Shown: one piece after another, positions 1 through 46,925 of the stretch
How positions within the stretch are numbered: the stretch's first letter is position 1
Layout of the letters: each line of letters begins with the position of its first letter
DNA from: a bacterium
Lineage (GTDB): Bacteria > CLD3 > SB21
DNA length: 62,016 bases
Direction: 5' to 3'
Assembly (NCBI GenBank): GCA_013360215.1
Contig: JABWCP010000018.1
Span: forward strand, 1-62,016
The notes under the pieces: model-generated
What the model saw: the letters and a program-made list of their open reading frames with translations, nothing else
Told to the model about the DNA's origin: nothing
Databases searched by the model: none
Program-made: the position numbers and the translations under genes

Positions 1-99
1 TCTCGTCGAATGTTCTCGTCGAATGTTCTCGTCGAATGTTCTCGTCGAATGTTCTCGTCGAATGTTCTCGTCGAATGTTCTCGTCGAATGTTCTCGTCG
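1..99. repeat. 13-bp tandem repeat (TCTCGTCGAATGT)n; 7 perfect copies plus an 8-bp partial copy; may extend beyond the window's left edge
   Basis: Units start at 1, 14, 27, 40, 53, 66 and 79; partial unit at 92-99; no spacers. Confidence 0.97.
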
Positions 100-117
100 T
101 AACGGAGGAGGAAGGGA

Positions 118-447
118 TTGGAAAAAGAGGGAACGAGAGGTGTCACAGAATTGGCCGAGAGCGCATGTATGTGCGAACGCCACCTCCGCCGAAAAACGAA
201 AGAAAAATTCGGCTTACCACCGCACCGGCTTTTAGAGAATATACGATTGGCCAAAGCTCTCGAAGCCATGCATGAACAACCTGAAGTCACGTTGCTTCAA
301 ATCAGTCAAATTGCCGGATATACATCATACAAAACATTTTATCAGGCTTTTACGCGGAGATTCAAAGTGGCACCGTCGGAAGCGATATGGCGTATAAAAC
401 AAAATCCAAGAATTATGGCAGATGCCTTTCAGAGAAAATTGATATAA
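118..447 (+). CDS. Stand-alone AraC-family helix-turn-helix protein (109 aa)
   Basis: TTG start after GGAGGAGG; VTELAESACMCERHLRR...RLAKALEAM...LLQISQIAGYTSYKTFYQAFTRRFKVAPS matches the AraC double-HTH pattern. Confidence 0.8.
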   Translation: MEKEGTRGVTELAESACMCERHLRRKTKEKFGLPPHRLLENIRLAKALEAMHEQPEVTLLQISQIAGYTSYKTFYQAFTRRFKVAPSEAIWRIKQNPRIMADAFQRKLI

Positions 448-635
448 GAAAGTCGACCAATTAATGAATGTCAAACAGGTTTTCATTTAAGGCAAAATAG
501 CACATTTAGCGACTACCATTTAAATATATTGTTAAACAAAAATAAGCGATACAGCTTTAGCGAAAACAATTAAAAAACCATTTTTTTATTAATACAAAAG
601 CTTATTTCAAATTCTATACTAAGGAAGGGGACAAC

Positions 636-1958
636 ATGAAAATGTTCAGCCTGTTACTAACATTGGTTTTTTTACTATTGAATTGTAAAGTTATAGCACA
701 AAGTCAAACTATAGAACAAGGCGCCATGGTAGACCTGATAAATCCTAGATCATTGGATCATCCTATTTATTTATCGTTCAAAGATGGAGACTATCTTACA
801 TCAATTATTGAATGTGATAAATGGGATTCTGTTTATAGAGGCACAAATTCAGAAGATGCCTTTATGGAACAAGAAGCTTACTACAATTCTTTTGTAGGTA
901 ATTACAAAAAAGCACTTAACAATTTCGACAAAATTAATGCCAAATGGATTAAGCAGCTCGATACCACTAACTTTCTTGACAGATCTTTTTTGTCAGCAAA
1001 AAAGCTGGATGCTGTAAATGAGATTATAAGAGAAGCGCAAAACCGCCAAATTACGATTGTTAATGAAGCACATCATGTACCGCAGCATCGTGCCTTCATA
1101 TCTTCACTACTTAAGCCTTTATATGAATCCGGCTATCGTTACTTTGCAACAGAAATGCTAACAGATAATATTGATACGGTAAAGAAGAACGGTTACGTCA
1201 GCTTTCAACAGAACGGATTTTATCCGAATGAACCCGTATATGCTAATTTAATTCGAAAGGCAATTGAAATTGGATATACTTTAGTCGGTTACGAAGATAC
1301 TGTGAACTGTGATTTTGACCCAGTAAATCCATTTCGCTGTTTAAATCAGCGAGAACAAAACCAAGCTAAAAACATAGCCAATCTAATCTTAAAGAATAAT
1401 TCAAATGCAAAAATCCTTATACATTGTGGATACCAACATGCAGATGAAGTTGAACATCAATCACCTAAGGTCAAAACAATGGCAGCGCATTTAAAAGAGT
1501 TAAGCAATACCGATCCCTTGACCATTGATCAAACGGTTATGAGTGAACACAGCTTAGTTAATTTTGAAAACTCATATTACAGATATGTTCAAGATAGTTT
1601 AAAAATAAATTCACCAGCAATATTTAAAACGATTAATGGTTATTGGGTTGATGACACTAAACGCGGGTTTGTCGACATGCAAGTTTTTCATCCAAGGACA
1701 AACTATATAAACGGTAGACCAAACTGGCTCATTAAAGAAAATTACATCCTCACTTTACCGGATTTTGATATTTCCTCTTTTCCTTTTTTGGTACAAGCAT
1801 TTAAAAAGTCTGATAAAACTAATGCAATTCCAATGGATCAGTTTTTAGTTGATTCAAGGAAAGAAAAAATTGCCGTAGCAGTACCCAAAGGGTATTATCG
1901 AATACGCATGATTAACAGCAAAGGCACTATTCATGAATTCGAAGTGAAAAATCCTTAG
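636..1958 (+). CDS. Secreted protein, putative EreA/ChaN/TIKI-superfamily hydrolase (paralog 1)
   Basis: AAGGAAGGGG SD; hydrophobic signal peptide; motifs IVNEAHH, YFATE, NQREQNQAKNI, ILIHCGYQH. The ORF is secure; the family call is tentative. Confidence 0.6.
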   Translation: MKMFSLLLTLVFLLLNCKVIAQSQTIEQGAMVDLINPRSLDHPIYLSFKDGDYLTSIIECDKWDSVYRGTNSEDAFMEQEAYYNSFVGNYKKALNNFDKINAKWIKQLDTTNFLDRSFLSAKKLDAVNEIIREAQNRQITIVNEAHHVPQHRAFISSLLKPLYESGYRYFATEMLTDNIDTVKKNGYVSFQQNGFYPNEPVYANLIRKAIEIGYTLVGYEDTVNCDFDPVNPFRCLNQREQNQAKNIANLILKNNSNAKILIHCGYQHADEVEHQSPKVKTMAAHLKELSNTDPLTIDQTVMSEHSLVNFENSYYRYVQDSLKINSPAIFKTINGYWVDDTKRGFVDMQVFHPRTNYINGRPNWLIKENYILTLPDFDISSFPFLVQAFKKSDKTNAIPMDQFLVDSRKEKIAVAVPKGYYRIRMINSKGTIHEFEVKNP

Positions 1959-1962
1959 ATAT

Positions 1963-2192
1963 TATCGCTTATTCTAAGTCTTCACAATTAAAACGGAGAC
2001 AAACATGAAAAACGAAAAAAAAGAACAGAAATTAGAACAATTCGAAGACTATAAACTCCAAAAGGCAAACTCAATTTCTGGCGGAAAAGCAAACACACTC
2101 TTGACAACACACGTGTGCCAAGGCGGTTGGGATGATATTACCGACTAATTAACTTAATCATGTAAAACCAAACTCTCTTAGAATAAGCGATA
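1963..2192. repeat. Perfect 16-bp inverted repeat flanking the precursor gene (arms 1963-1978 and 2177-2192)
   Basis: TATCGCTTATTCTAAG and CTTAGAATAAGCGATA are exact reverse complements. Confidence 0.92.
2005..2148 (+). CDS. RiPP precursor peptide, 47 aa: MKNEKKEQKLEQFEDYKLQKANSISGG-KANTLLTTHVCQGGWDDITD
   Basis: Translated by hand; not in the ORF track. GGAG SD 5' of the ATG; double-glycine leader; Thr/Lys...Asp core; directly upstream of the ATP-grasp gene, in a cluster with a C39 exporter. Confidence 0.9.
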   Translation: MKNEKKEQKLEQFEDYKLQKANSISGGKANTLLTTHVCQGGWDDITD

Positions 2193-2198
2193 TTTTTT

Positions 2199-3215
2199 AT
2201 GATTCTTATTTTCAGCATAGACGGAGGTGATGGGTCTACATCCCCAGTAATGGATTGGATAACTTATCTTGGCGCTGATAGAATTAGAGTGAACGTTGGA
2301 AATCTTAATAAAGATGTAAAATTTTCAATACATTTAGAACCAAACGGTATTACTACTGAATATCGAAATATGGATATAAATTTTTCATCCAAAGAAGTTA
2401 GTGCCGTATGGTTTAGACGAGAAGAGCGAATGTTCAGCGGGCTTGATACATCGTCAATATCCAACATTCGAATCAAAGAATCAGTTGATAGATTTTTGCA
2501 ACGAGAAGTAGAGGTCATTAAACAAGCTCTCTACTTACAATTTGACGATAAAGTATGGCTGTGTGATCCATCGTCGGGCAACCTTAACAAGATTAATGCT
2601 CTACAAAAAGCATGTGACGCAGGCATACGAATCCCAACCACTTTAATTACCAATAAGAGAACTGAATTGGAACGTTTTAAAAATAAACATAGAAAAATTA
2701 TATGCAAATGCTTTAGACAAGGAGGTGTTATTCAGTTAGACGGCTCAACATATGGAATGCATACTGAAATACTGTCTGATGATATTATCTCTAGTACCGA
2801 TGATGTTTTGTTTCCTGCTTTTGTACAAGAATACATTCCTAAAAAATACGAATTGAGGATTTTTTTTATTGAAAGTAACTTTTTTCCCATGGCAATTTTT
2901 TCACAAAACGACCCTCAAACATCAGTTGATTTTAGAAAATATAATTATTTAAAACCCAATCGAAATACTCCTTACATCTTACCTCACGAGATCCAAGAAA
3001 AATTAAAAACTCTTATGTTAAGCCTGAAACTCAATACGGGTTCAATTGATATGATCAGGGCAACCGACGGAAGTTACGTGTTTCTAGAGGTCAATCCTGG
3101 TGGGCAGTTTGGGATGGTCTCTGAACCGTGTAACTATTATTTAGAGAAACGAGTCGCTGAATATTTAATAAATCAATCAAAAAAATATTATGAGTCAAAA
3201 GTTTTTAGAAATTGA
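2199..3215 (+). CDS. gwsG: Grasp-with-SPASM system ATP-grasp peptide maturase (graspetide synthetase)
   Basis: NKINAL..A...GIRIPTTLIT, QEYIPKKYELR, DFR, GSIDMI and FLEVNPGGQF motifs of RimK/MvdD-like ligases; SPASM gene downstream. Confidence 0.9.
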   Translation: MILIFSIDGGDGSTSPVMDWITYLGADRIRVNVGNLNKDVKFSIHLEPNGITTEYRNMDINFSSKEVSAVWFRREERMFSGLDTSSISNIRIKESVDRFLQREVEVIKQALYLQFDDKVWLCDPSSGNLNKINALQKACDAGIRIPTTLITNKRTELERFKNKHRKIICKCFRQGGVIQLDGSTYGMHTEILSDDIISSTDDVLFPAFVQEYIPKKYELRIFFIESNFFPMAIFSQNDPQTSVDFRKYNYLKPNRNTPYILPHEIQEKLKTLMLSLKLNTGSIDMIRATDGSYVFLEVNPGGQFGMVSEPCNYYLEKRVAEYLINQSKKYYESKVFRN

Positions 3216-3399
3216 TAAATTCATCAATGAGCCAACACTCATTTCAAAACTTCCAATAACATTTAAGCTACTTGAACAATCTACTTATGATCAATTAAGT
3301 ACTATCTCTCCGGTACGAAGTGATTTTCATCAAGAAAATAATTATGGAATAAAATTTTTTTATAAAACAATTTCAAAGCCATTTAACAATCCTTTTTAA
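3190..3399 (+). CDS. Small hypothetical protein (69 aa) between the ATP-grasp and SPASM genes
   Basis: Fills the gap exactly: overlaps the gwsG 3' end and stops 10 bp before gwsS. An open frame this long is unlikely by chance in such AT-rich DNA. Confidence 0.6.
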   Translation: MSQKFLEIDKFINEPTLISKLPITFKLLEQSTYDQLSTISPVRSDFHQENNYGIKFFYKTISKPFNNPF

Positions 3400-3409
3400 T
3401 TTTAAACTA

Positions 3410-4423
3410 ATGAGCGTTTTTTTTAAAATGCATGGCAACTGTATTCCGGTCAAAGGGGCAGTTAAAAGCGTAATATGCGATCTACAGCGTCATGAGCTAA
3501 AACAAATTTCAAATGACGTTTTCGAATTATTGGAGTTACTAAAGAATCACCCTGTAGAATATCTAAAGAATATTTACACTACTGAATTTATAGATGAATC
3601 GTTAGAGTTTTGTGTTACAAACGAATTCGGCTTCTACACTGAAGAGCCTTGGCTATTTCCAGAAATAGATTTGTCGTGGGATTCACCGTATCAAATATCA
3701 AATGCAATTATTGATTCAAGCAAACAATCAAAACACAACTATAAAAAAATAATTGACGAGTTAGATGAACTTGGATGTGAAACAATACAGTTTAGATTTT
3801 ACTTTTGCCCTCAATTATCTTTTCTAAACCACATACTTCTTCTTACGCAGGTAAGCAGGCTAAAGTCCATTCAACTTATATTAAAAGATGAAAATTTAAT
3901 AACTCAAAAAGAACTCGAAGAAGTATGCAGAGCTAACCCAAGAATTGAAAGCATTTTCTTACATTCATCACATCTTTTTAGGATCATTGATAAAATTGAA
4001 GGAAGTCACGCCAACATAATCTATTTTACTGATAGAATTGAATCGCATGATTCATGCGGAAATATTAATAAAATGTATTTTTGTATTAATATCCCAATGT
4101 TTACTGAAGCTCACAAACTGAATACATGTCTGAATCGCAAAATATCAATTGACGTTAATGGCGACATAAAGAATTGTCCTTCTATGACGCGTCACTTTGG
4201 AAACATACACAACACTTCATTACATAGTGCAATTATTCAAAAAGAATTTAAAGATTTATGGCTTATAAATAAGGATCAAATTGAAGTTTGTAAGATTTGT
4301 GAATTTAGATATGTTTGCACCGATTGCCGTGCTTTCATTACAGAACCAAGCAACATTTATTCAAAACCTTCAAAATGCACTTACGACCCTACTATTGGAA
4401 AGTGGTTAGATGAGACCCAATAA
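3410..4423 (+). CDS. gwsS: Grasp-with-SPASM system SPASM-domain peptide maturase
   Basis: C-terminal SPASM: CLNRKISIDVNGDIKNCP...FGNI...CKICEFRYVCTDC (Cx2Cx5Cx2C)...KC; no CxxxCxxC motif. Confidence 0.88.
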   Translation: MSVFFKMHGNCIPVKGAVKSVICDLQRHELKQISNDVFELLELLKNHPVEYLKNIYTTEFIDESLEFCVTNEFGFYTEEPWLFPEIDLSWDSPYQISNAIIDSSKQSKHNYKKIIDELDELGCETIQFRFYFCPQLSFLNHILLLTQVSRLKSIQLILKDENLITQKELEEVCRANPRIESIFLHSSHLFRIIDKIEGSHANIIYFTDRIESHDSCGNINKMYFCINIPMFTEAHKLNTCLNRKISIDVNGDIKNCPSMTRHFGNIHNTSLHSAIIQKEFKDLWLINKDQIEVCKICEFRYVCTDCRAFITEPSNIYSKPSKCTYDPTIGKWLDETQ

Positions 4424-4452
4424 ATTTAAAATGGCTACATAAATGAGGAAAG

Positions 4453-5754
4453 ATGAAATCGTTTGTATTACTTGTCTTGCTTTCATTAAACCAAATATAT
4501 GCGCAGTATTATCTCCCACCGGCAATTATGGATTCGATTCGGGATATTGATAGGTCACTATCTTCTGATCGTAACTATATAGCCGCTTTGAATCGGTTAA
4601 ACCGAATTCATGCAATGCCACAATATGCCGGGCAGCCTATATTGTTTAATCATTGGGGCTTGTATAATTCTTTAGTGTCCGATTATTCGACGGCAATTGC
4701 TTTTTTTGACTCCATTGAGCTTCTTCGTCAGAGTCAACGCCGTACCACATCATTGCCGCCAACCGGTTTAACCTTTGATACAAGCCAAATACGCCCTTAT
4801 CCCGCGATGGAAACCATACTTCGCCTTGCAAAGAATAATTCCGTCGTAATGATCAATGAGCGTCATCACATGCCTATGCATCGGGCTTTTATTTTGGAAC
4901 TTCTGATTCGCCTCAAAGCGCTCGGATATACCCACTATGCTGCCGAAGGATTGCAAAATCACGATACAATCACAAGCCCTACAACATACCCTGCGATAGG
5001 AAAGACAGGATATTATGTAAATGAGCCTGTTTTTGCTGAATTGATACGAACTGCCATTCTGTTGGGTTATAAGATAGTCGCCTATGAAACAACAAGCTCG
5101 GCATCTCCCGAATCCGATCCTATCAAAAACCAAAATAAAAGGGAAAAAGAACAGGCTGAAAATTTGTACAATAAAACTTTGCTCCAAGACCCTCATTGTA
5201 AAGTTTTAGTCCATGTCGGTTATGGTCACAACGATAAAATGGGAGTTGGCGGCTGGATACCTATGGCATCCTACTTCAAAACTATAAGCGGCGTCGAGCC
5301 TTTGTCCATTGATCAAATTGAAATGTTTGAACACCGTGTTTCGGATTTTGAAAACCCCTATTACCGGTTTATTTCCGGCATGATTTCGCAGCCTACAGTT
5401 TTTATTGAAAAATCTTCGAGCACATCTTGGGCGCACCTGCAACCCGGCAACTTCGATTTGGGAATATGCCACCCCAAAGAAACTTATGTTCATGGACGCC
5501 CGACATGGAGAAACATAGCTAACCGCTATCGGATGTATGATCTACCCAACGAAAAAAGAACAATTACAAAAGGTTTACTCCAGGCGTTTTATCATGATGA
5601 GCCTACGGATGCTGTTCCAGCAGATCAGATCGTTTTTAATACCGGCACTTGGCAGACGATCCCGTGTTTATTATTAAGACCGGGGAAATATCGCTTCCGA
5701 TTAATAAGCGGGGAAAGCGATGCATCATCGGAATGGGTGGATACGGTCAAATAA
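4453..5754 (+). CDS. Secreted protein, putative EreA/ChaN/TIKI-superfamily hydrolase (paralog 2)
   Basis: Signal peptide; MINERHH, HYAAE, NKREKEQAENL, VLVHVGYGH; co-linear similarity to 636-1958 (NEPV(F/Y)AxLIR, PL(S/T)IDQ, FENxYYR, GRPxW). Confidence 0.6.
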   Translation: MKSFVLLVLLSLNQIYAQYYLPPAIMDSIRDIDRSLSSDRNYIAALNRLNRIHAMPQYAGQPILFNHWGLYNSLVSDYSTAIAFFDSIELLRQSQRRTTSLPPTGLTFDTSQIRPYPAMETILRLAKNNSVVMINERHHMPMHRAFILELLIRLKALGYTHYAAEGLQNHDTITSPTTYPAIGKTGYYVNEPVFAELIRTAILLGYKIVAYETTSSASPESDPIKNQNKREKEQAENLYNKTLLQDPHCKVLVHVGYGHNDKMGVGGWIPMASYFKTISGVEPLSIDQIEMFEHRVSDFENPYYRFISGMISQPTVFIEKSSSTSWAHLQPGNFDLGICHPKETYVHGRPTWRNIANRYRMYDLPNEKRTITKGLLQAFYHDEPTDAVPADQIVFNTGTWQTIPCLLLRPGKYRFRLISGESDASSEWVDTVK

Positions 5755-5756
5755 TC

Positions 5757-7958
5757 ATGAGCCGCTTTCCGATATATCTTCAGCATGACAAAATGGACTG
5801 CGGCCCGGCTTGTATCCGTATGATAACAAGATTTTTTGGACGTACAGTCAGCCCGGAAAAATTACGCTGCATCACCTATGCCTCCAAGGGAGGCACCTCT
5901 CTTTTGAATTTGTCGGAGGCCGCAGAATCTTTGGGTTTTAGAACATTAGCGGTCAAGGTATCTCTTCAAAAGCTTCAGAAAGCGCCTCTGCCTTGTATTG
6001 TGTTTTGGCAGCAGCGTCACTTTATCGTAGTCTATAAGATCGGTCGAAGATATATCCATGTTGCCGATCCGGCGCACGGGATTCTAAAATACCGTCACGC
6101 AGACTTCGTATCCGGATGGTATAGTGACCGATCAAATGAAGGCGAGGGTCAGGGCATCGCCCTGCTCTTCGAACCAACGCCGGCATTTTACGAATCGGAG
6201 GATGATTTTGAAAAATCGTCGAATCCCAATAAAAAGGGCTTTGGCCTTTTATGGCCGTATTTGCGATCGCATCACAAGCTGATATTTCAGCTCGGTTTAG
6301 GTTTTTTATTGGGAAGCATATTACAGCTCATATTTCCGTTCCTCGCCCAATCTATGGTAGATATGGGTATTCACAATCAGAATATCGGCTTTGTATATAC
6401 CATACTGTTAGCGCAACTGATGCTTTTTCTCAGCCGAATAACAGTCGAAAGTATCCGGCGCTGGATACTCCTACATATCAGCACACGACTACAGGTTTCC
6501 CTCATATCCGATTTTCTGAGGAAGCTGATGCGTCTGCCTGTGGCTTTTTTTGATGCCAAACAAACCGGCGACCTGATGCAGCGCATAAATGACAGCCATC
6601 GGATAGAAAACTTTCTCACGGTGACTTCGCTCAGTTTCGTTTTTTCTATATTCAATCTTTTTATCTTCGGTGCCATTATACTTTTATACAGCCCTTTCAT
6701 ATTTCTGATTTTTACAACTTTCAGCGCCGTTTCGATAACATGGATCATGTTTTTTATGAAAAAAAGGCGTGATCTGGACTACAAACGGTTTGACCGTATG
6801 TCCGAAAACCAGCAGGGCATACTTCAGATCATCATGGGTATGCAGGAAATCAAACTCAGCGGATCGGAAAAGCAGAAACGATGGAAATGGGAATCGCTAC
6901 AGGCAAAACTTTTTACCATTAGCCGTAAAGCACTGGGTTTGGGGCAGGTGCAGGAGACCGGCACGCTTTTTATCAATGAATTTAAAAACATTATGATCAC
7001 ATTCATCGCGGCCAAAGAAACGATAGACGGACATATCACGCTCGGTGCGATGATGGCGATACAATATATGATCGGTCAACTGAATGCACCTATTGATCAG
7101 ATGATCGTTTTTTTGCAACACGCCCAAGATGCCAAACTGAGTTTAGAACGGTTATCAGAAATACATACCCACGACGATGAAGATCATGAAAGTGATAACA
7201 GCGCTCAACTTCCTCAGGAAAGATCCATAATGCTGGATCAGGTTTCATTTCAGTATGAGGGCCCTCACTCGCCCTACGCGCTCAAAGATGTCCACCTCCC
7301 GATACACGAAGGAAAAATAACGGCTATTGTCGGTGAAAGCGGTAGCGGCAAAACAACTTTACTTAAACTTTTGCTCAAGTTTTATATCCCGACAGAGGGA
7401 AAAATAAGCGTCGGATCGGACGCACTATCGCAGATCAGCGCTTCTTTTTGGCGTCAGCAGTGCGGCGTCGTCATGCAAGACGGGTATATTTTTTCGGATA
7501 CGATCGCTCACAATATCGCTCCTGCGGATGAAACCGTAGATCACCGAAGGTTGATACAAGCCGTCGAGGTTGCTAATATTCGGACATTCATTGAATCTTT
7601 ACCTCTGCGATACAATACTAAAATCGGAAATGACGGACTCGGACTCAGTCAGGGTCAAAAGCAACGCATTCTCATCGCCCGCGCAGTTTATAAAAATCCG
7701 CAATATTTGTTTTTTGATGAAGCTACCAGTGCGCTGGACGCTACTAACGAACGGATCATTATGTACAATCTTCAGCGTGTCTTCCAAAACAAAACCGTCG
7801 TCATCATCGCGCACCGACTCAGTACCGTGCGTAACGCCGATCAGATCATCGTACTGGAAAAAGGGAGTGTGGTGGAATCCGGCTCACATATTGAACTGAC
7901 CCAACAACGAGGCGTTTACTTCGAACTGGTACGCAACCAATTAGAACTCGGGAATTAG
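5757..7958 (+). CDS. Peptidase C39 domain-containing ABC transporter (PCAT)
   Basis: QHDKMDCGPAC catalytic Cys, HFIVV, DPAHG; transmembrane domain; GESGSGKTT, LSQGQKQR, DEATSALD. Start moved to ATG 5757, just after the previous stop. Confidence 0.95.
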   Translation: MSRFPIYLQHDKMDCGPACIRMITRFFGRTVSPEKLRCITYASKGGTSLLNLSEAAESLGFRTLAVKVSLQKLQKAPLPCIVFWQQRHFIVVYKIGRRYIHVADPAHGILKYRHADFVSGWYSDRSNEGEGQGIALLFEPTPAFYESEDDFEKSSNPNKKGFGLLWPYLRSHHKLIFQLGLGFLLGSILQLIFPFLAQSMVDMGIHNQNIGFVYTILLAQLMLFLSRITVESIRRWILLHISTRLQVSLISDFLRKLMRLPVAFFDAKQTGDLMQRINDSHRIENFLTVTSLSFVFSIFNLFIFGAIILLYSPFIFLIFTTFSAVSITWIMFFMKKRRDLDYKRFDRMSENQQGILQIIMGMQEIKLSGSEKQKRWKWESLQAKLFTISRKALGLGQVQETGTLFINEFKNIMITFIAAKETIDGHITLGAMMAIQYMIGQLNAPIDQMIVFLQHAQDAKLSLERLSEIHTHDDEDHESDNSAQLPQERSIMLDQVSFQYEGPHSPYALKDVHLPIHEGKITAIVGESGSGKTTLLKLLLKFYIPTEGKISVGSDALSQISASFWRQQCGVVMQDGYIFSDTIAHNIAPADETVDHRRLIQAVEVANIRTFIESLPLRYNTKIGNDGLGLSQGQKQRILIARAVYKNPQYLFFDEATSALDATNERIIMYNLQRVFQNKTVVIIAHRLSTVRNADQIIVLEKGSVVESGSHIELTQQRGVYFELVRNQLELGN

Positions 7959-7961
7959 AAG

Positions 7962-9242
7962 ATGCCCAACGATATTGAACCCCTTGAACGTATCCACAGC
8001 GACAGTTATGACGACGTGATGAATTACGAGCCCCATTGGTTGATACGGAGGGGTTCGTTCATATTGCTATTGGTCATTATTTTTTTGATTACCGTCAGCG
8101 GATATATACAATATCCGGATATATTACGCGGACAAATCACGCTGATCAGCGATCAGCCCACATTGGAGGTTGTCGCGCAATCCACAGGCCGCGTGAAATT
8201 GTTTGTCAAAGATCGCGACTCAGTCAAGGCCGGGCAACCTCTGGCTATGATCGAAAACCCTGCCGACTTTGCTTCCATTCAGAAATTGCGCTTATTTTTA
8301 GATTCTGCATCTTCTCAAAGCGATAGTTACGTAATGATAGATACAGCGTTACAACTCGGAGAACTGCAGACTTTTTATTCGGAAGTCATGCAGAATTATA
8401 AAGAATTAGCATCGTTTAAAGAGATCAATTATGAAGTAAAAAAAATCAACTCCATTCGGCAACAGATCAGCGCCTATTATAATTTGGGCGACCGACTGGA
8501 TGATCAGATCAAACTTCTGAAATTAGATGTGATGAAAGCCGAAAAAGATTTTGAAGTTAATAAATCTTTACATGAACGCGGACTACTTTCGGATGTCGAG
8601 CTCTCCGGTTATCAGTTCCAGTTAAACCAGAAGAAACTTGCGATGGAAGAAGCGCAGAAAGAAACTATCCGTAATTCGATCGTAGTTTCTGAAAATCTCA
8701 AAAACATATTAGACATGGAATTTCAAAATCAGGACAAAACGGCCCGGTACCTGATTCGCATACAGGAGTCACTGAGCAAACTCAAGAGCGAATTTTCAGC
8801 ATGGGAAAAAAAATACTGGATAACCAGTCCCATTAGCGGTGAAGCCATCTACAATGATGTATGGACAGACGACCGATTTGTAAAACTGGGCCAGGAGATC
8901 ATGACGATCAATCCGAAAACAAATCGTATTCGCGGACGCATAAAATATGAAGGCCCCGGACTCGGAAAAGTTGTTCCCGGACAGGAAGTTAAAATCAAAT
9001 TAGAAAATTATCCTTTTCAGGAATTCGGTATCGTATCGGGCGTCGTGGAAAATATTTCAGCCGTATCCAAAGATAAATCTGTAGTCATACAAATCACACT
9101 CCCTCAACAATTAAAAACATCTTTGGGTGCCTTATTGGAATACAAACAAGAAATGCAAGGAACATCCGAAATAATAACCGAAAACAGCACGTTGCTCGAA
9201 AGAGTTTTTCAACAACTGCGCCAAATCACCCAATATCAGTAA
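7962..9242 (+). CDS. HlyD-family periplasmic adaptor (type I secretion)
   Basis: N-terminal TM helix, VKAGQPLAMI, long coiled coil, SPISG, YPFQEFG..G.V..IS. Confidence 0.92.
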   Translation: MPNDIEPLERIHSDSYDDVMNYEPHWLIRRGSFILLLVIIFLITVSGYIQYPDILRGQITLISDQPTLEVVAQSTGRVKLFVKDRDSVKAGQPLAMIENPADFASIQKLRLFLDSASSQSDSYVMIDTALQLGELQTFYSEVMQNYKELASFKEINYEVKKINSIRQQISAYYNLGDRLDDQIKLLKLDVMKAEKDFEVNKSLHERGLLSDVELSGYQFQLNQKKLAMEEAQKETIRNSIVVSENLKNILDMEFQNQDKTARYLIRIQESLSKLKSEFSAWEKKYWITSPISGEAIYNDVWTDDRFVKLGQEIMTINPKTNRIRGRIKYEGPGLGKVVPGQEVKIKLENYPFQEFGIVSGVVENISAVSKDKSVVIQITLPQQLKTSLGALLEYKQEMQGTSEIITENSTLLERVFQQLRQITQYQ

Positions 9243-9586
9243 ATTAATTTGTATTTACTCGTGGTTTTCCAATACATAACTTCTTAATCTTATAAATTTG
9301 AAAACTATTTGATCTCCCATTGGAAAATCTCTATGATAATATCATGCGTGGTTACTTGATATAATCTACTAATCTGAAAAACAATCACCCCCTCTTTTTT
9401 GTTATCCCTCGCTCGTCTTTCACCGATTCATAACGACATAACCCCAACGATTTCATCGTTTGATAACCGACAAAAGTCATTTTTTACGATGATACGAATC
9501 ATTCCAAAGTATTCGGATTTATAATAGACTGCTCTTAGTCGGGTGCCTTGTGCACGGCCGGCTATTGTCCAACCAACGAGGCTGTT

Positions 9587-12500
9587 ATGTCCAATACCAA
9601 ACGTGCGATGGTTACGCTGGACGGCAATGAAGCCGCCGCTTACGTAGCCCACAAACTCAGCGAAGTCATAGCCATCTACCCCATCACGCCGTCTTCGGCG
9701 ATGGGCGAATTTTCCGATGAATGGTCCAGTAAAGGAAAAACCAATCTTTGGGGAACCGTGCCGCTCGTCATGGAAATGCAGAGCGAAGGCGGTGCAGCGG
9801 GAACTGTGCACGGCGCATTGCAGACCGGCTCACTCACGACGACATTTACCTCATCGCAGGGACTTCTGCTAATGATTCCCAATATGTATAAAATCGCAGG
9901 CGAACTCACCGCGACAGTATTTCACGTCGCGGCGCGGGCAATAGCTTCACAAGCACTTTCGATATTCGGTGATCACTCCGACGTGATGTCCGTTCGCGCT
10001 ACAGGGTGGGCCCAACTGAGTGCGCATTCCGTACAGGAAGTGATGGATATGGCGCTCATCGCGCATGCTGCCACGCTTCGTGCACGGGTACCGTTCATTC
10101 ATTTTTTTGATGGATTTCGTACGTCGCACGAAGTCATGAAAGTAGAACAACTTACCGACGAAGACATGCTCGCCATGATCGATGATCATCTCATCCGTGC
10201 GCATCGCGAGCGCGGTCTTTCACCGGAACATCCCGTCATGCGGGGCACGGCGCAAAATCCGGACGTATTTTTTCAAGGGCGTGAAGCCGCCAATCCCTAT
10301 TATCAAAAATGCCCCGCGATCGTTCAGGAAACTATGGATCGTTTTGCGAAACGCACGGGCCGCGCCTACAAATTATTTGATTATTTCGGCGCTCGGGATG
10401 CGGAACATATTATCGTCGCGATGGGTTCGGGCGCTTTGACGGCACAAGAAACTGCCGCATTCCTGATCGGACAAGGCCATAAAGTGGGCGTGGTCAAAGT
10501 TCACCTCTATCGCCCGTTTTCGATCGAACATCTTATCGCGGCTTTTCCCAAAACCGTTCGCACGATCGCCGTGCTGGATCGCACCAAAGAACCGGGCAGC
10601 GCGGGTGAACCGCTGTATCAGGATGTCATCACGGCGCTTACGGAAACTTTTATCGACGGCAAATTGCCCTTTGCTATGCCCCGTGTGATCGGTGGGCGCT
10701 ACGGCTTATCATCCAAAGAGTTTACGCCGGCCATGGTCAAAGCCGTTTACGATGAATTGCAAAAAACTCTTCCTAAAAATCATTTTACCGTAGGCATTCA
10801 TGATGACGTATCGCATTTGAGCCTGGATGTGAATCCCGATTTTTCGATTGAACCCCAAGATGTCGTGCGGGCATTATTTTACGGACTCGGCGCCGACGGC
10901 ACTGTCGGTGCGAATAAGAACTCCATCAAAATCATCGGCGAGGATACCGATAATTTCGCCCAAGGTTATTTTGTGTACGATTCTAAAAAATCCGGTTCTA
11001 TCACCGTTTCCCATTTGCGATTCGGCCCGAAACCTCTGTTTTCCTCGTATCTGGTGACCCGTGCTAATTTTATTGCGTGCCATCAGTTTAGTTTTCTTGA
11101 AAAATACGATATGCTCAAATATGCCGTCGAAGGCGGTACGTTTTTACTCAATAGCCCCTTTGACGAAAATGAAGTGTGGGATCAATTGCCGCTCATCGCA
11201 CAAAAAGAAATTACGGAAAAAAAATTACGCTTTTTTGTGATCGACGGTTACCGCGTGGCCAAAGAAACCGGCATGGGTGGACGATTTAATACTATCATGC
11301 AAACTTGTTTTTTTGCCATATCCGGCATTCTCCCGCGCGATAAAGCGATCGAAGCGATCAAACACGCCATTCAAAAAACCTACGGTAAAAAAGGCGATGA
11401 AATCGTACGCATCAACTTTAACGCCGTAGATCAGACATTGGCCAATCTCAAAGAAGTCAACTATGCCGGAAGACCTTTAACCGATCGTGCGATGCGACCT
11501 CCGGTGGATCCTCTGGCGCCGGACTTCGTCAAAGACGTAACCGGACGTATAATACTAGGCGACGGCGACACATTGCCGGTAAGCGCCATGCCGGCCGACG
11601 GGACATTCCCGACCAATACCGCACGTTGGGAAAAAAGAAATATCGCCCTCGAAATCCCGGTCTGGGATCCCGCCGTGTGTATCCAATGCAACAAGTGTGC
11701 ATTGGTATGCCCGCACGCAACGATCCGCGCCAAAGTGTTTCCAGAAGCTGCGCTCGATGGTAAGCCGGAACATTTCAAAGCCGTACCATATAAAGGCAAA
11801 GAATTTCCCAACAGTCTTTATACCATACAAGTGGCCCCCGAAGACTGCACCGGCTGTGGCTTGTGTGTTGATGTATGCCCGGCAAAAAACAAACAGGAAA
11901 CCCGCCTCAAAGCGATCTATATGCAGCCGCAAAGCCCGATTCGCGATCAAGAACGCATCCATTGGGAATATTTTCTTCGCCTCCCGGAAGCCGACCGTAC
12001 ACAGGTGCCGCTCAATACCGTCAAAGGTTCTCAGTTTTTACAACCGCTATTCGAATTTTCCGGTGCATGCAGCGGCTGCGGCGAAACGCCATATCTCAAA
12101 CTGATCAGTCAGCTTTTCGGCGATCGCGCAATGGTCGCCAATGCGACCGGCTGTTCCAGCATCTACGGCGGTAATCTGCCTACGACACCTTGGGCGCAAA
12201 ATAAAGACGGGCGCGGCCCGGCGTGGAGCAATTCGCTTTTCGAAGATAATGCCGAATTTGGTCTCGGTTTCCGTCTCACGGTAGACAAACAAACAGCGTT
12301 TGCACAAGAACTGCTCTATCGCCTCGGCGATTCATTGGATAAAGAGCTTATCACATCATTGATCGCGTCACCCCAAAAAACCGAAGCCGATATGCAAGCG
12401 CAACGCGCACGCGTTCAAGTTCTTAAAAACCGTCTTACTTCATTATCACATCCCGATGCCAAACGCTTACTCGACGTTGCCGATTTTCTTGTCAAAAAAA

Positions 12501-38934: not shown

Positions 38935-39831
38935 TCATTTTGCGCGCGGATGTGCTTTTTCATAGACTTTTTTCAAACGATCAACCGTAACGTGCGTATA
39001 TACCTGTGTGGTTGAGAGATTTTCGTGACCCAGCAAATCTTTCACGGCACGCAGATCCGCGCCATTGTCCAGTAAATGCGTAGCAAACGAATGCCGCAAA
39101 ATATGCGGACTCAGTTTTTTGGCATCGGATACTTTTTCGAGTGCGCGCTTGACCAAACGCTGAACGGCAAGCGGGGTAATCCGTTTACCGTTTTTTCCGA
39201 GAAATACGGCGTTTTTATCGGCGGACGAAACGGACCGTCGGTAATCAATGTAACCTTGCAACGCCGCTCCGGCATGTTTTCCCATAGGAATAATTCGCTG
39301 TTTGGCGCCCTTACCGAAAACCGAAAGCGTACCACCGGTAAAATTGATATCGGAAAAATTGAGACCCGTCAATTCGCTAAGACGGATACCGCAGCCATAA
39401 AACAATTCGAGGATTGCGCGATCGCGTAAGCCTTCCGGGGTACCGGCATCGACATAATCAAATACATCACGCACCTGTTCCTGACCAAGGAATGCCGGCA
39501 TTTTTCTTTCAAATTTGGGTGTAGCAATGAGTTTGGCCGGATTGGCCGTAATGATTTGCTGTTTGGTCAGATATTTAAAAAAGGATTTTACGGCGGATAA
39601 TTTGCGTGCGATACTTTTTTTCTGCAACCGATCACGGCTGAGTTGACCAAGATAAGCACGAATTTCGTTTTTGGAAATATCGGATGCATCAAACGATGAA
39701 CTGTCGAAACGCGTCTCGACAAACGAAATAAATGCTGCGACATCCGTATGGTATGCGCCCACCGTTTTATCGGAAAAATTACGTTCGGCGTCGAGATATT
39801 TGAGGAAATCGTGTAGGTGTTGTCTGATCAT
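38935..39831 (-). CDS. xerC: Tyrosine recombinase XerC
   Basis: RDRAILELFY..GIRLSEL, GKGAKQR, HILRHSFATH, LGHENLSTTQVYTHV; xerC-hpf gene order. Confidence 0.88.
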   Translation of the reverse strand: MIRQHLHDFLKYLDAERNFSDKTVGAYHTDVAAFISFVETRFDSSSFDASDISKNEIRAYLGQLSRDRLQKKSIARKLSAVKSFFKYLTKQQIITANPAKLIATPKFERKMPAFLGQEQVRDVFDYVDAGTPEGLRDRAILELFYGCGIRLSELTGLNFSDINFTGGTLSVFGKGAKQRIIPMGKHAGAALQGYIDYRRSVSSADKNAVFLGKNGKRITPLAVQRLVKRALEKVSDAKKLSPHILRHSFATHLLDNGADLRAVKDLLGHENLSTTQVYTHVTVDRLKKVYEKAHPRAK

Positions 39832-44775: not shown

Positions 44776-46128
44776 ATGCCATCGAATCAGTTTGCGTATA
44801 ACTCGTTTGTTGAGTTGGATAACCAAATAAACGGTAAGCGAAGCCCGTTTAGCCCACTCAATAACAAGCTCAACTTTGATGATAAGCGATTTCATGATTG
44901 GTATCGATTTGTATTGTCTTATCCCGCGCATCTGGTAAGAACCTATCTCCAAGAGTTTTGTAGCAGCCAAAACGATATTGTACTTGATCCTTTTTGCGGT
45001 ACCGGAACGACTCTGGTAGAAGCAAAACTAAATGGAGTTAACTCTGTAGGCATAGAAGCTAATCCGTTCGCTCATTTTGCATCGACCACTAAAATCAATT
45101 GGGAAATATCTGCTGATCAATTTTTAAAATGCGCACTTGAAATAGCTGATCTTGTCAGATCAGAATTTGAAAAAAGTGGAATTGATGATGATGACACTAA
45201 TATGCCAGAACATACATTTCCTCTAAGAACACTTGATTCCGAATTAGAAAAAATCATTTTAACAAATTCTATAAGCCCAATTCCACTACACAAAACGTTA
45301 GTGTTGTTAGAAAACATTAAGAATCATGCCCAAAAACAATATTATCCTCACTTACTTTTAGGGCTAGCCAAGGCTACAGTGTTTAAAACAAGTAACTTAA
45401 AATTTGGCCCGGAAGTCGGTCTTGGAAAAATAAAGGATAATGTATCTGTCATTGCACCATGGCTATTTGAAATAAATGCAATTGCGAATGACCTCCGAAC
45501 AATCCAAATCGGCACGCATAAAGAATCCATTGCGCATTTGGGAGATTCCCGCCAGGCGAGTGCATTGATTAAACCTCAATCGATCACTGCGGTTATCACC
45601 TCACCGCCATATCCAAACGAAAAAGATTACACTCGAACCACTCGTTTAGAATCCGTTTTGTTGGGCTTCATACGAAGCAAAGAAGAATTGCGTCAATTTA
45701 AAAAGACTTTGATTAGATCGAATACCAGAGGCGTTTACAAAGACGATGACGATCACCAATGGATTGCCAATCACCCCGAAATTAAGCGTATTGCTGATCA
45801 AATTGAGGCGCGTCGAATTGAGCTTAATAAGACATCTGGATTTGAGCGTTTATACAGTAGAGTGACGTTATTATATTTTGGAGGAATGGCAAAACATCTA
45901 AAAGAATTACAACCGGTATTAAAACCCGGCGCTCGATTAGCTTATGTTGTTGGAGATCAAGCCTCTTATTTGAGGATAATGATCCGAACCGGTGAAATTC
46001 TTGCTGATATTGCAAAAAAGTTAGGTTACAGAGTTGATCGAATTGATTTGTTTAGAACAAGGTTTGCTACTGCAACGGGCGAACAATTACGCGAAGAGGT
46101 AGTTGTTTTGACATGGCCGGGAAATTAA
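44776..46128 (+). CDS. Site-specific DNA methyltransferase (probably N4-cytosine, alpha motif order)
   Basis: HDWYRF, motif I VLDPFCGTGTT located before motif IV TSPPY. Confidence 0.88.
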   Translation: MPSNQFAYNSFVELDNQINGKRSPFSPLNNKLNFDDKRFHDWYRFVLSYPAHLVRTYLQEFCSSQNDIVLDPFCGTGTTLVEAKLNGVNSVGIEANPFAHFASTTKINWEISADQFLKCALEIADLVRSEFEKSGIDDDDTNMPEHTFPLRTLDSELEKIILTNSISPIPLHKTLVLLENIKNHAQKQYYPHLLLGLAKATVFKTSNLKFGPEVGLGKIKDNVSVIAPWLFEINAIANDLRTIQIGTHKESIAHLGDSRQASALIKPQSITAVITSPPYPNEKDYTRTTRLESVLLGFIRSKEELRQFKKTLIRSNTRGVYKDDDDHQWIANHPEIKRIADQIEARRIELNKTSGFERLYSRVTLLYFGGMAKHLKELQPVLKPGARLAYVVGDQASYLRIMIRTGEILADIAKKLGYRVDRIDLFRTRFATATGEQLREEVVVLTWPGN

Positions 46129-46130
46129 TC

Positions 46131-46925
46131 ATGAAATCAGACAACCGATATAAACAAATCATCGAAAAAATATTCTTTAACCATTATAAAAATGGGATGA
46201 AAGAAGTACCATTTGAAAGAGATGAAATTGAACGTGTTGCAAAAAATCTAAAGATCAAACTACCTAAGAACATTGGCGATATTATTTACACTTTTCGGTA
46301 TCGAGTGGCACTGCCTAATTCGATTGTTTCCAAGGCACCTAAAGGGATGGAATGGATAATCAGACCTGCCGGTCAGTCTAAGTACAAATTTGTAACTACA
46401 AAATTTGCAAACATCCATCCTTCTGAGATACTAAGTCAGACCAAAATCCCTAATGCCACCCCCGGTATTATAGAGTCATATGCTTTCTCTGATGAGCAAG
46501 CACTGTTAGCAAAAATCAGATATAACCGACTAATCGACATTTTTACCGGAATAGCATGTTATTCATTACAAAGCCACTTACGATCAAATGTTTCGAACCT
46601 CGGCCAAATAGAAACAGATGAAATCTATGTTGGCATTGACAAGAAAGGGGTGCATTACATTATTCCAGTGCAAGCAAAAGGTTCTACTGATAAACTTGGA
46701 ATTGTGCAAATAGAACAAGATATCGCATTGTGTAAAAACAAATTCCCTAACTTAGTCGCCAAACCAATTGGTGCGCAATCCATTACTGACGATCTGATCG
46801 CGTTGTTCGAGTTTGAAATATCGGATAATGGAATTACAGTTGTTTCTGAAAAACACTATCGTTTGGTCAATCCTGAAAATCTATCGCCTCAAGAATTACT
46901 AAGTTACCGTAATCGAACCGAGTAG
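46131..46925 (+). CDS. Putative type II restriction endonuclease (PD-(D/E)xK-like)
   Basis: Starts 2 bp after the methyltransferase stop; ETDEIYVG...PVQAK resembles a D...(Q)xK active site. Confidence 0.65.
   Translation: MKSDNRYKQIIEKIFFNHYKNGMKEVPFERDEIERVAKNLKIKLPKNIGDIIYTFRYRVALPNSIVSKAPKGMEWIIRPAGQSKYKFVTTKFANIHPSEILSQTKIPNATPGIIESYAFSDEQALLAKIRYNRLIDIFTGIACYSLQSHLRSNVSNLGQIETDEIYVGIDKKGVHYIIPVQAKGSTDKLGIVQIEQDIALCKNKFPNLVAKPIGAQSITDDLIALFEFEISDNGITVVSEKHYRLVNPENLSPQELLSYRNRTE

Follow-up and report, generated by a model that had tools for sequence, protein, structure and literature searches.

The window analysed here is a stretch of 62,016 nucleotides that forms the entire contig C27 of a 3.72-Mb genome in 56 contigs, which is 100% complete by markers. 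Its left end carries a candidate locus of the grasp-with-SPASM type, that is, a system for making peptides that ribosomes synthesise and that are modified after translation (RiPPs). The initial annotation of this DNA had described nine co-oriented genes at positions 118 to 9242, and the open reading frame (ORF) listing agrees with it: all nine ORFs are present on the plus strand (Table 1). The gaps between genes from hydrolase-like 1, here called ChaN1, through HlyD are -26 to 50 nt and thus compatible with a single operon. The locus as a whole may be explained as an intact, horizontally acquired grasp-with-SPASM operon with ChaN-like helper proteins acting in the cell envelope, an explanation to which we give an even chance.

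Table 1. Features at the left end of the window (positions count from its first letter; aa, amino acids; TMD, transmembrane domain; NBD, nucleotide-binding domain)
Feature	Position	Strand	Remarks
13-nt tandem repeat, TCTCGTCGAATGT x 7.6	1..99		contig edge, perfect array
AraC-family helix-turn-helix (HTH)-only ORF, 109 aa	118..447	+	TTG start; PF12833 59.4 bits, residues 12-88
ChaN1 (hydrolase-like 1), 440 aa	636..1958	+	predicted secreted; predicted erythromycin esterase (Ere)/ChaN (Tiki superfamily) core
Precursor peptide, 47 aa	2005..2148	+	leader ends SISGG; predicted core KANTLLTTHVCQGGWDDITD
GwsG, ATP-grasp peptide maturase, 338 aa	2199..3215	+	TIGR04192
LPL-family small protein (by motifs), 69 aa	3190..3399	+	KLPITF and FYKTISK motifs; 26-nt overlap with GwsG end
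GwsS, SPASM-domain protein, 337 aa	3410..4423	+	TIGR04193
ChaN2 (hydrolase-like 2), 433 aa	4453..5754	+	second predicted secreted Ere/ChaN-fold protein
Peptidase-containing ABC exporter (C39 + TMD + NBD), 733 aa	5757..7958	+	frame open from 5649
HlyD-family periplasmic adaptor, 426 aa	7962..9242	+	TIGR01843 82.2 bits (below cut-off 208.65), PF13437 39.1 bits

GwsG scores 284.9 bits against TIGR04192, the grasp-with-spasm equivalog (curated cut-off 230), versus 24.8 bits against the RimK family (cut-off 143.4). The latter score is far under its cut-off, so GwsG does not group with the RimK-type ligases, the one placement that the initial annotation had regarded as incompatible with its assignment of a graspetide ATP-grasp enzyme. 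GwsS, the proposed SPASM partner, reaches 310.9 bits with TIGR04193 (cut-off 175), so that the suggested search with hidden Markov models (HMMs) places both proteins above the cut-offs of their families. The C-terminus of GwsS contains CxxCx5CxxC cysteines, and its resemblance to radical S-adenosylmethionine (SAM) families is limited to the SPASM region (243-313). GwsG shares only 42-44% identity with its closest foreign relatives, which belong to Bacteroidota, Gemmatimonadota, Acidobacteriota and other groups.

The survey of gene order around homologous ATP-grasp genes, also suggested in the annotation, was done on the best 80 of at least 591 confirmed GwsG-related loci from genome contigs. 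A GwsS homolog follows GwsG in 78 of the 80 loci and lies within 900 nt of it in 74. Exporter matches above 400 bits were observed in 35/80 loci and HlyD matches in 26/80. A small ORF with a C-terminal motif resembling K-P-I-S-K separates GwsG from GwsS in at least 57 of the 74 loci. The 69-aa ORF of the window can be aligned with 27 loci, its KLPITF corresponding to LPxx[FY] and its FYKTISK to [FY]KPISK, and by these motifs it is a member of the published LPL family. According to Makarova et al. (PMC8939145), genes of this family are always immediately 5' of the SPASM gene, and a role as a PqqD-like chaperone has been proposed for them. A predicted complex of GwsG, GwsS and the LPL protein, with the latter as the partner, scored 0.87, versus 0.00 and 0.00 in two partner-swap controls; with GwsG replaced by an unrelated protein the score was still 0.83, and the prediction speaks neither way on binding.

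This is the arrangement of the grasp-with-SPASM system (TIGR04192/TIGR04193), which is already known, having been defined by genome mining. Makarova et al. 2022 treat it as 'branch 5' of the ATP-grasp enzymes, and it corresponds to graspetide group 14, the SPASM-linked graspetides of Carter et al. 2026 (PMC13097080). The window and the system are alike in having GwsG and GwsS above the cut-offs, in the order GwsG, LPL small protein, GwsS with the peptidase-containing exporter and HlyD downstream, and in a double-glycine (GG) leader precursor with Thr, Asp and Cys in the core. They are unlike in that the present host is not a member of Bacteroidota but of a phylum for which the collection has only 20 species genomes, that two Ere/ChaN-fold proteins stand here in place of the DUF6624 ('cluster 23'-like) protein, and that the present precursor matches no precursor model. 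We consider it very probable that this is a genuine and functional gws cluster.

The precursor is the sole GG-leader-like small ORF found by a heuristic scan of window positions 1-10000. As first described, it has a double-glycine leader, and the predicted cut after SISGG would leave the 20-residue core KANTLLTTHVCQGGWDDITD. Possible donors in the core are Thr4, Thr7, Thr8, Thr19 and Lys1, possible acceptors are Asp16, Asp17 and Asp20, and there is one further candidate position, Cys11; the core also contains a second GG. The curated precursor models (TIGR04139, TIGR04149, PF14406) gave no NCBIfam match at E<=10, and Pfam gave ComC alone (E 0.14). Precursors of this graspetide branch are reported to be highly diverse, and thus the missing match does not exclude membership. 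In a collection of 5.8 billion sequences the precursor matched only its own cluster, in a search that requires shared 5-residue words.

The exporter contains the C39 peptidase domain (PF03412, 116.5 bits) together with the ABC membrane domain (PF00664, 99.8 bits) and the ABC ATPase domain (PF00005, 104.9 bits), in agreement with its annotation as a C39-ABC exporter. It is under the cut-offs of every named equivalog (TIGR03796, 453.7 bits versus a cut-off of 853). Its start is most likely the ATG at 5757, 2 nt past the stop codon of ChaN2, rather than the TTG at 5649. Among the 42 further ORFs of the window no match to the OEP/TolC family was observed at E<=1e-5, and seven TolC-like genes lie on other contigs of the genome. 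This is the situation anticipated by the initial annotation, in which TolC is supplied in trans.

The two hydrolase-like proteins are 34% identical over 357 residues. They are paralogs, as their description as 'duplicated' implied, but this term overstated their kinship: they are not sisters in the family tree, and a recent duplication is ruled out. Both N-termini, read by eye, have a hydrophobic signal-like segment. No NCBIfam model was reached by either protein, and neither the ChaN1 sequence nor the family profile retrieved anything useful from the sequences of the PDB. ChaN2 found no relative in a metagenome scan, from which records close to the window's genome may have been missing. The family is large (2506 clusters at 50% identity, E<=0.001), and its members are named 'hypothetical'. 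Weak matches to PF04187 (Cofac_haem_bdg, ChaN; Tiki superfamily) were observed in 31 of 42 aligned family members, the best with E 4.3e-6.

The AlphaFold2 model of ChaN1 has a predicted local distance difference test (pLDDT) score of 92.8 and a predicted template modelling (pTM) score of 0.89. In its region ~110-355, VIA retrieves 2qgm (Z 17.6), 2rad (17.1), EreC (6xcq, 16.6), HopBA1 (5t09, 15.9) and ChaN (2g5g, 14.7), and the next row outside this superfamily falls to Z 8.6. Foldseek gives E-values from 1e-4 to 2e-3 for 5t09, 6a7h, 5w6l and 2g5g. In this model the core of ChaN1 is a Tiki / erythromycin esterase / ChaN superfamily fold with a parallel beta-sheet. According to VIA, residues 34-108 match tetratricopeptide repeat (TPR)-like helices and residues 366-440 match fibronectin type III (FN3) sandwiches.

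Eight residues are invariant across the 42 family sequences: N143, E144, H146, R152, E173, R239, G265 and H268 in ChaN1 numbering. The presumed catalytic set is E144, H146, E173 and H268 in ChaN1 and E136, H138, E165 and H259 in ChaN2. In RRSP the 2His/2Glu set E3900/H3902/E3930/H4030 is catalytic and common to the Ere family (PMC6254334). The Tiki/TraB/PrgY peptidases and RRSP are alike with ChaN1 and ChaN2 in fold and, to judge from motif spacing, in the putative 2His/2Glu site, RRSP being a distant relative only (Z 9.4) with a differing domain context. The best structural matches are the erythromycin esterases and their relatives (EreC 6xcq; Bcr135/136 2rad, 2qgm, 3b55), with Z 16.6-17.6 over 226-237 aligned residues. 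They have the presumed His/Glu set and its spacing in common with the window proteins, and their substrate is a macrocyclic ester, as is a graspetide ring. On the other hand, identity to them is 12-14%, no match to PF05139 was obtained, and the window proteins are predicted to be secreted and carry the added TPR-like and FN3-like domains.

The 3.72-Mb genome has no family members besides ChaN1 and ChaN2, which are set within the operon at gaps of 2-46 nt, the shortest being that between ChaN2 and the exporter gene. Among the 80 related loci, the family HMM found ChaN-like homologs in seven (L007, L012, L028, L035, L048, L056, L063), in each case immediately preceding GwsG or following GwsS; L056 and L093 have the ChaN-like gene between the precursor and GwsG. 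The original remark that hydrolase-like genes are outside the canonical minimal set is consistent with this low frequency. In the five genomes behind five linked loci, a sample chosen for the link, 8/9 ChaN-like copies adjoin a gws cluster. The genome G021 (Bacteroidia) contains four separate grasp-with-SPASM clusters (L035, L063, L092, L093), each with its own ChaN-like gene. In a tree of 46 rows, obtained by a quick search with support from the SH-like approximate likelihood-ratio test (SH-aLRT) only, the linked copies fall into more than one clade and need 9 changes, at least six of them forced by well-supported branches. Linkage of ChaN-like genes to RiPP loci is thus recurrent and polyphyletic. 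The presumed catalytic set is intact in 11/11 cluster-linked copies, and part of it is lost in 4/15 solo copies. When metagenomes were scanned with P0122, which of the foreign GwsG proteins is the closest, the loci obtained contained no ChaN-like genes.

The commonest extra gene of the 80 loci encodes a DUF6624 protein (24/80), which is secreted, often headed by a TPR part and often encoded directly upstream of GwsG. No locus has both a DUF6624 and a ChaN-like gene, although this zero overlap is not significant alone, and DUF6624 is absent from the window's genome. The two families occupy the same positions beside GwsG or GwsS and are alike in being secreted and in frequently having a TPR part at the N-terminus. 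However, they are not homologous (hhalign probability 0.6%), and the model of a DUF6624 protein is all-helical (pLDDT 91.6), with Foldseek and VIA giving TPR matches to its N-terminal part only. The DUF6624 proteins are probably the predicted extracellular enzymes of 'cluster 23' of Makarova et al., an identification made from the published descriptions, including that of DUF6624 in Carter et al. The ChaN-like family was considered for 'cluster 23' as well and rejected, since the common accessory is the unrelated DUF6624.

Fusions connect the two families. Four metagenomic proteins among 275 with a ChaN domain combine it with DUF6624, which comes first in three of them and second in one. In other fusions the ChaN-like module is joined to an S41 peptidase domain (two proteins) or stands as a tandem double ChaN (one protein). 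Further proteins, P0323, P0318 and P0332, have the ChaN-like module fused with regions 2 and 4 of extracytoplasmic function (ECF) sigma factors, with SnoaL/DUF4440 and with DUF5329.

Within the host phylum, represented by 20 genomes, GwsG was found in the window's genome and in one other, where it belongs to a separate locus with a different gene order and precursor and with no ChaN-like gene. ChaN-like genes occur in 5/20 genomes. In G010, positions 2-2837 of contig C131 (L121) contain, in one direction, genes for a 125-aa AraC-type protein, a ChaN-like protein, a GG-leader peptide (33-49 aa, four Cys) and a thioredoxin-like protein, possibly a minimal peptide locus that lacks a known maturase. 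In G007, of a sister genus, positions 8462-15040 of contig C11 (L122) contain a C-terminal fragment of GwsG (58.5% identity over residues 256-330), a 612-aa ChaN-like protein, Lant_dehydr_C, a Cys-rich precursor with a GG leader and a LanC-like protein. In G019 a ChaN-like gene adjoins a TPR-DUF6624 gene. From these contexts, the role would seem to concern exported peptides with GG leaders at large and not just ester rings.

In composition the cluster, with 32-34% GC, is foreign to the host genome, which has ~45% GC. From ChaN1 through GwsS the GC content is 26-38%, with 16-40% at third codon positions (GC3), and from ChaN2 through HlyD it is 41-45% (GC3 40-49%), versus 51% (GC3 53%) in the flanking gene of pyruvate:ferredoxin oxidoreductase (PFOR). 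The composition is thus split in two, with a biosynthetic half (636-4423) and a half from ChaN2 through the exporter genes (4453-9242), which suggests two acquisitions or parts of different age. No GwsG of 45-99% identity to that of the window turned up. Public relatives encode ChaN1-like and ChaN2-like proteins (P0395, P0388, P0386, P0391) of 87% and 90% identity, respectively; the accession numbers of the two are 8 apart in four assemblies, and the window genes are 5 apart. The cassette between the two genes in these relatives may differ from that of the window.

The pathway that we propose is as follows, every chemical step of it, as well as the location and substrate of the hydrolases, being inferred. 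The 47-aa precursor would be bound via its double-glycine leader. GwsG with ATP would join side chains of Thr/Ser (or Lys) to Asp side chains of the core, forming ester or amide rings. The LPL protein and GwsS would introduce another modification, the obvious candidate site being Cys11. Cleavage behind SISGG would be the work of the C39-ABC exporter, which together with HlyD and a TolC provided in trans would also export the 20-residue product. ChaN1 and ChaN2 would be extracytoplasmic hydrolases with a TPR-like peptide-binding part whose target, in the periplasm, is the peptide after its export. They would most likely serve self-protection or turnover, opening an ester ring or cleaving a peptide bond in product that remains in the envelope or re-enters it. 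They would hold the place that DUF6624 proteins have in other such clusters.

The ChaN-like proteins are likely to be functionally tied to the peptide. As to their role, self-protection or turnover is our tentative choice, somewhat short of an even chance, and maturation is on the unlikely side. Self-protection or turnover is favoured because the ChaN-like genes are dispensable, patchy and interchangeable with another secreted family, and because leader removal is already covered by the C39 domain. There would also be precedents. Ere enzymes inactivate a macrocyclic ester antibiotic by a ring-opening mechanism, and PrgY/TraB curb the cell's own secreted peptide pheromone. A more specific proposal is that the proteins of Ere/ChaN fold work in the periplasm as esterases that open the side-chain macrolactones of graspetides, providing producer self-immunity, with DUF6624 as the second half of the same extracytoplasmic step; this we hold to be improbable.

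Several observations weigh against this overall reading of the locus. The SAM-cleavage motif CxxxCxxC is absent from GwsS and Pfam gives no Radical_SAM match, so GwsS is not to be taken as a canonical radical SAM enzyme. The AraC ORF at the head of the cluster is probably 5'-truncated, with 11 residues before the HTH domain versus 26 in the 125-aa stand-alone homolog of G010. ChaN1 and ChaN2 match no Pfam model at E<=10, PF04187 and PF05139 included. Their similarity to RRSP in the catalytic set (E-x-H, +27 to E, +95 to H) is an equivalence suggested by motif spacing, not by superposition. ChaN itself is a haem-binding protein. The lanthipeptide-like and Cys-rich peptides beside the ChaN-like genes of the sister genomes speak against an ester-specific role. 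In the available DNA of the 80 loci, 49 lack ChaN-like and DUF6624 genes alike, and thus the function is dispensable. Finally, among 400 evenly drawn Bacteroidota genomes, ChaN-like genes were found in 12 (14 copies) and GwsG above the cut-off in 9, and none of the 14 copies, whose contexts vary, adjoins GwsG or a GG-leader ORF. The ChaN-like family overall is therefore not RiPP-bound, and the idea of a general link to RiPPs does not hold across Bacteroidota; RiPP biology accounts for part of the family only, through the recruitment of a subset.

One alternative is that ChaN1 and ChaN2 are maturation enzymes that trim the peptide in the periplasm after the C39 cut, at its N-terminal residues or at the second GG, to give the active form. 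The Tiki superfamily includes endopeptidases, RRSP with the same 2His/2Glu set among them, and Makarova et al. proposed Tiki/TraB peptidases for leader cleavage in another graspetide branch. The fusions to S41 peptidase domains, the position of the ChaN-like gene between precursor and GwsG in two loci, and the second GG of the core agree with such a role. However, the exporter already supplies leader removal, a cut at the second GG would yield a 6-residue piece without Thr residues, and maturation cannot generally depend on a gene that is missing in 73/80 gws loci. We therefore regard this trimming as rather unlikely. Still less probable is that the two proteins are mere passengers of the island whose function is independent of it, be it the handling of haem or iron, as in ChaN, or general periplasmic hydrolysis. 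The 14 copies of the even Bacteroidota sample, all in unrelated contexts, the weak PF04187 matches in most family members, and the presence of ChaN among the structural matches are what a passenger would lead one to expect. Yet the only two copies of the genome are both inside this operon, linkage to gws loci arose repeatedly and independently, the family is found fused to DUF6624, itself a protein of graspetide clusters, and the catalytic set is kept in every linked copy.

The cluster could also be a silent or decaying import that makes no product in the present host. The AraC ORF, ~15 N-terminal residues shorter than its closest stand-alone homolog, abuts a tandem repeat, the GC3 from ChaN1 to GwsS differs from that of the neighbouring PFOR gene, and a sister genome has only a GwsG fragment. 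On the other hand, all eight downstream ORFs are intact, and the cluster stretch was found in 20 sequencing runs from 10 studies, mostly of activated sludge and with no RNA run listed among them, and this suggests maintenance. A 7,895-base contig of another study spans 100-7964 with 9 differences to the window. A silent or decaying cluster is very unlikely.

In the literature searched, with subscription papers and most supplements outside, neither the occurrence of Ere/ChaN-fold proteins in SPASM-linked clusters nor their fusion to DUF6624 was found to be mentioned, and there was no characterised product of a grasp-with-SPASM cluster. The sole link between Ere and RiPPs found in that literature is in Makarova et al. 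2022 (PMC8939145) and concerns another ATP-grasp branch, the 'cluster 575' loci of gammaproteobacteria, whose Ere homolog was suggested to serve modification or host resistance. Like the window's cluster, these loci encode an ATP-grasp protein and an Ere-like protein along with a double-glycine peptidase and a GG precursor; they are set apart, by their description, as two near-identical loci of the other branch without SPASM and LPL.

ChaN-like, DUF6624 and TPR modules, tied together by position, mutual exclusion and fusion, lead to a single hypothesis, in which the exported peptide is their target and the site of action is extracytoplasmic. If these proteins are indeed esterases, peptides with ester bridges would have a route of resistance or turnover, the ring-opening ChaN-like proteins would be a RiPP counterpart of macrolide esterases, and the commonest unexplained accessory family of graspetide clusters would receive its first function. 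The locus also illustrates the spread of a mostly Bacteroidota system into a poorly known lineage of activated sludge. The cluster is compact, intact and complete and has a single precursor, which makes it convenient to express.

The AraC ORF has a single domain, HTH_18, matched over positions 1-76 of 80. Its frame is interrupted by a stop at 100-102; the new start, TTG 118, follows a stretch rich in GGAGG. The initial annotation counted it as a gene of the cluster; the ORF does exist, but it is short and is not a conserved member, since none of the 80 foreign gws loci has an AraC homolog. AraC-type genes do occur with ChaN-like genes in G010 and G007, and the membership of the ORF in the cluster is uncertain. 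The 13-nt array preceding it also terminates contig C35 at its 3' end, so C35 adjoins the start of the window. The ORFs upstream of the array on C35, named by reading their translations, are thioredoxin/rhodanese-like, LysR-type and KatG-like, and no AraC N-terminus was observed there. The unit of the repeat is not a multiple of three, and the array, which breaks the assembly, is just 5' of the GGAGG of the AraC ORF, a sequence resembling a ribosome-binding site. The length of the array could vary by slippage and alter expression. A scan for promoters and terminators gave 26 promoter-like sites versus 29.5 expected.

At the right end of the cluster, two coexisting variants of the region 7935-9456 (HlyD and the downstream spacer) were observed in run X4. 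One contig is identical to the window; the other, of higher depth, differs from it at 51 of 578 bases, as would be expected if strains had recombined at this end. The remainder of the window contains housekeeping genes. Distant from the cluster, there are a tyrosine recombinase with XerC/D-type domains and a DNA methylase with an unassigned neighbour (38935-39831 and 44776-46925).

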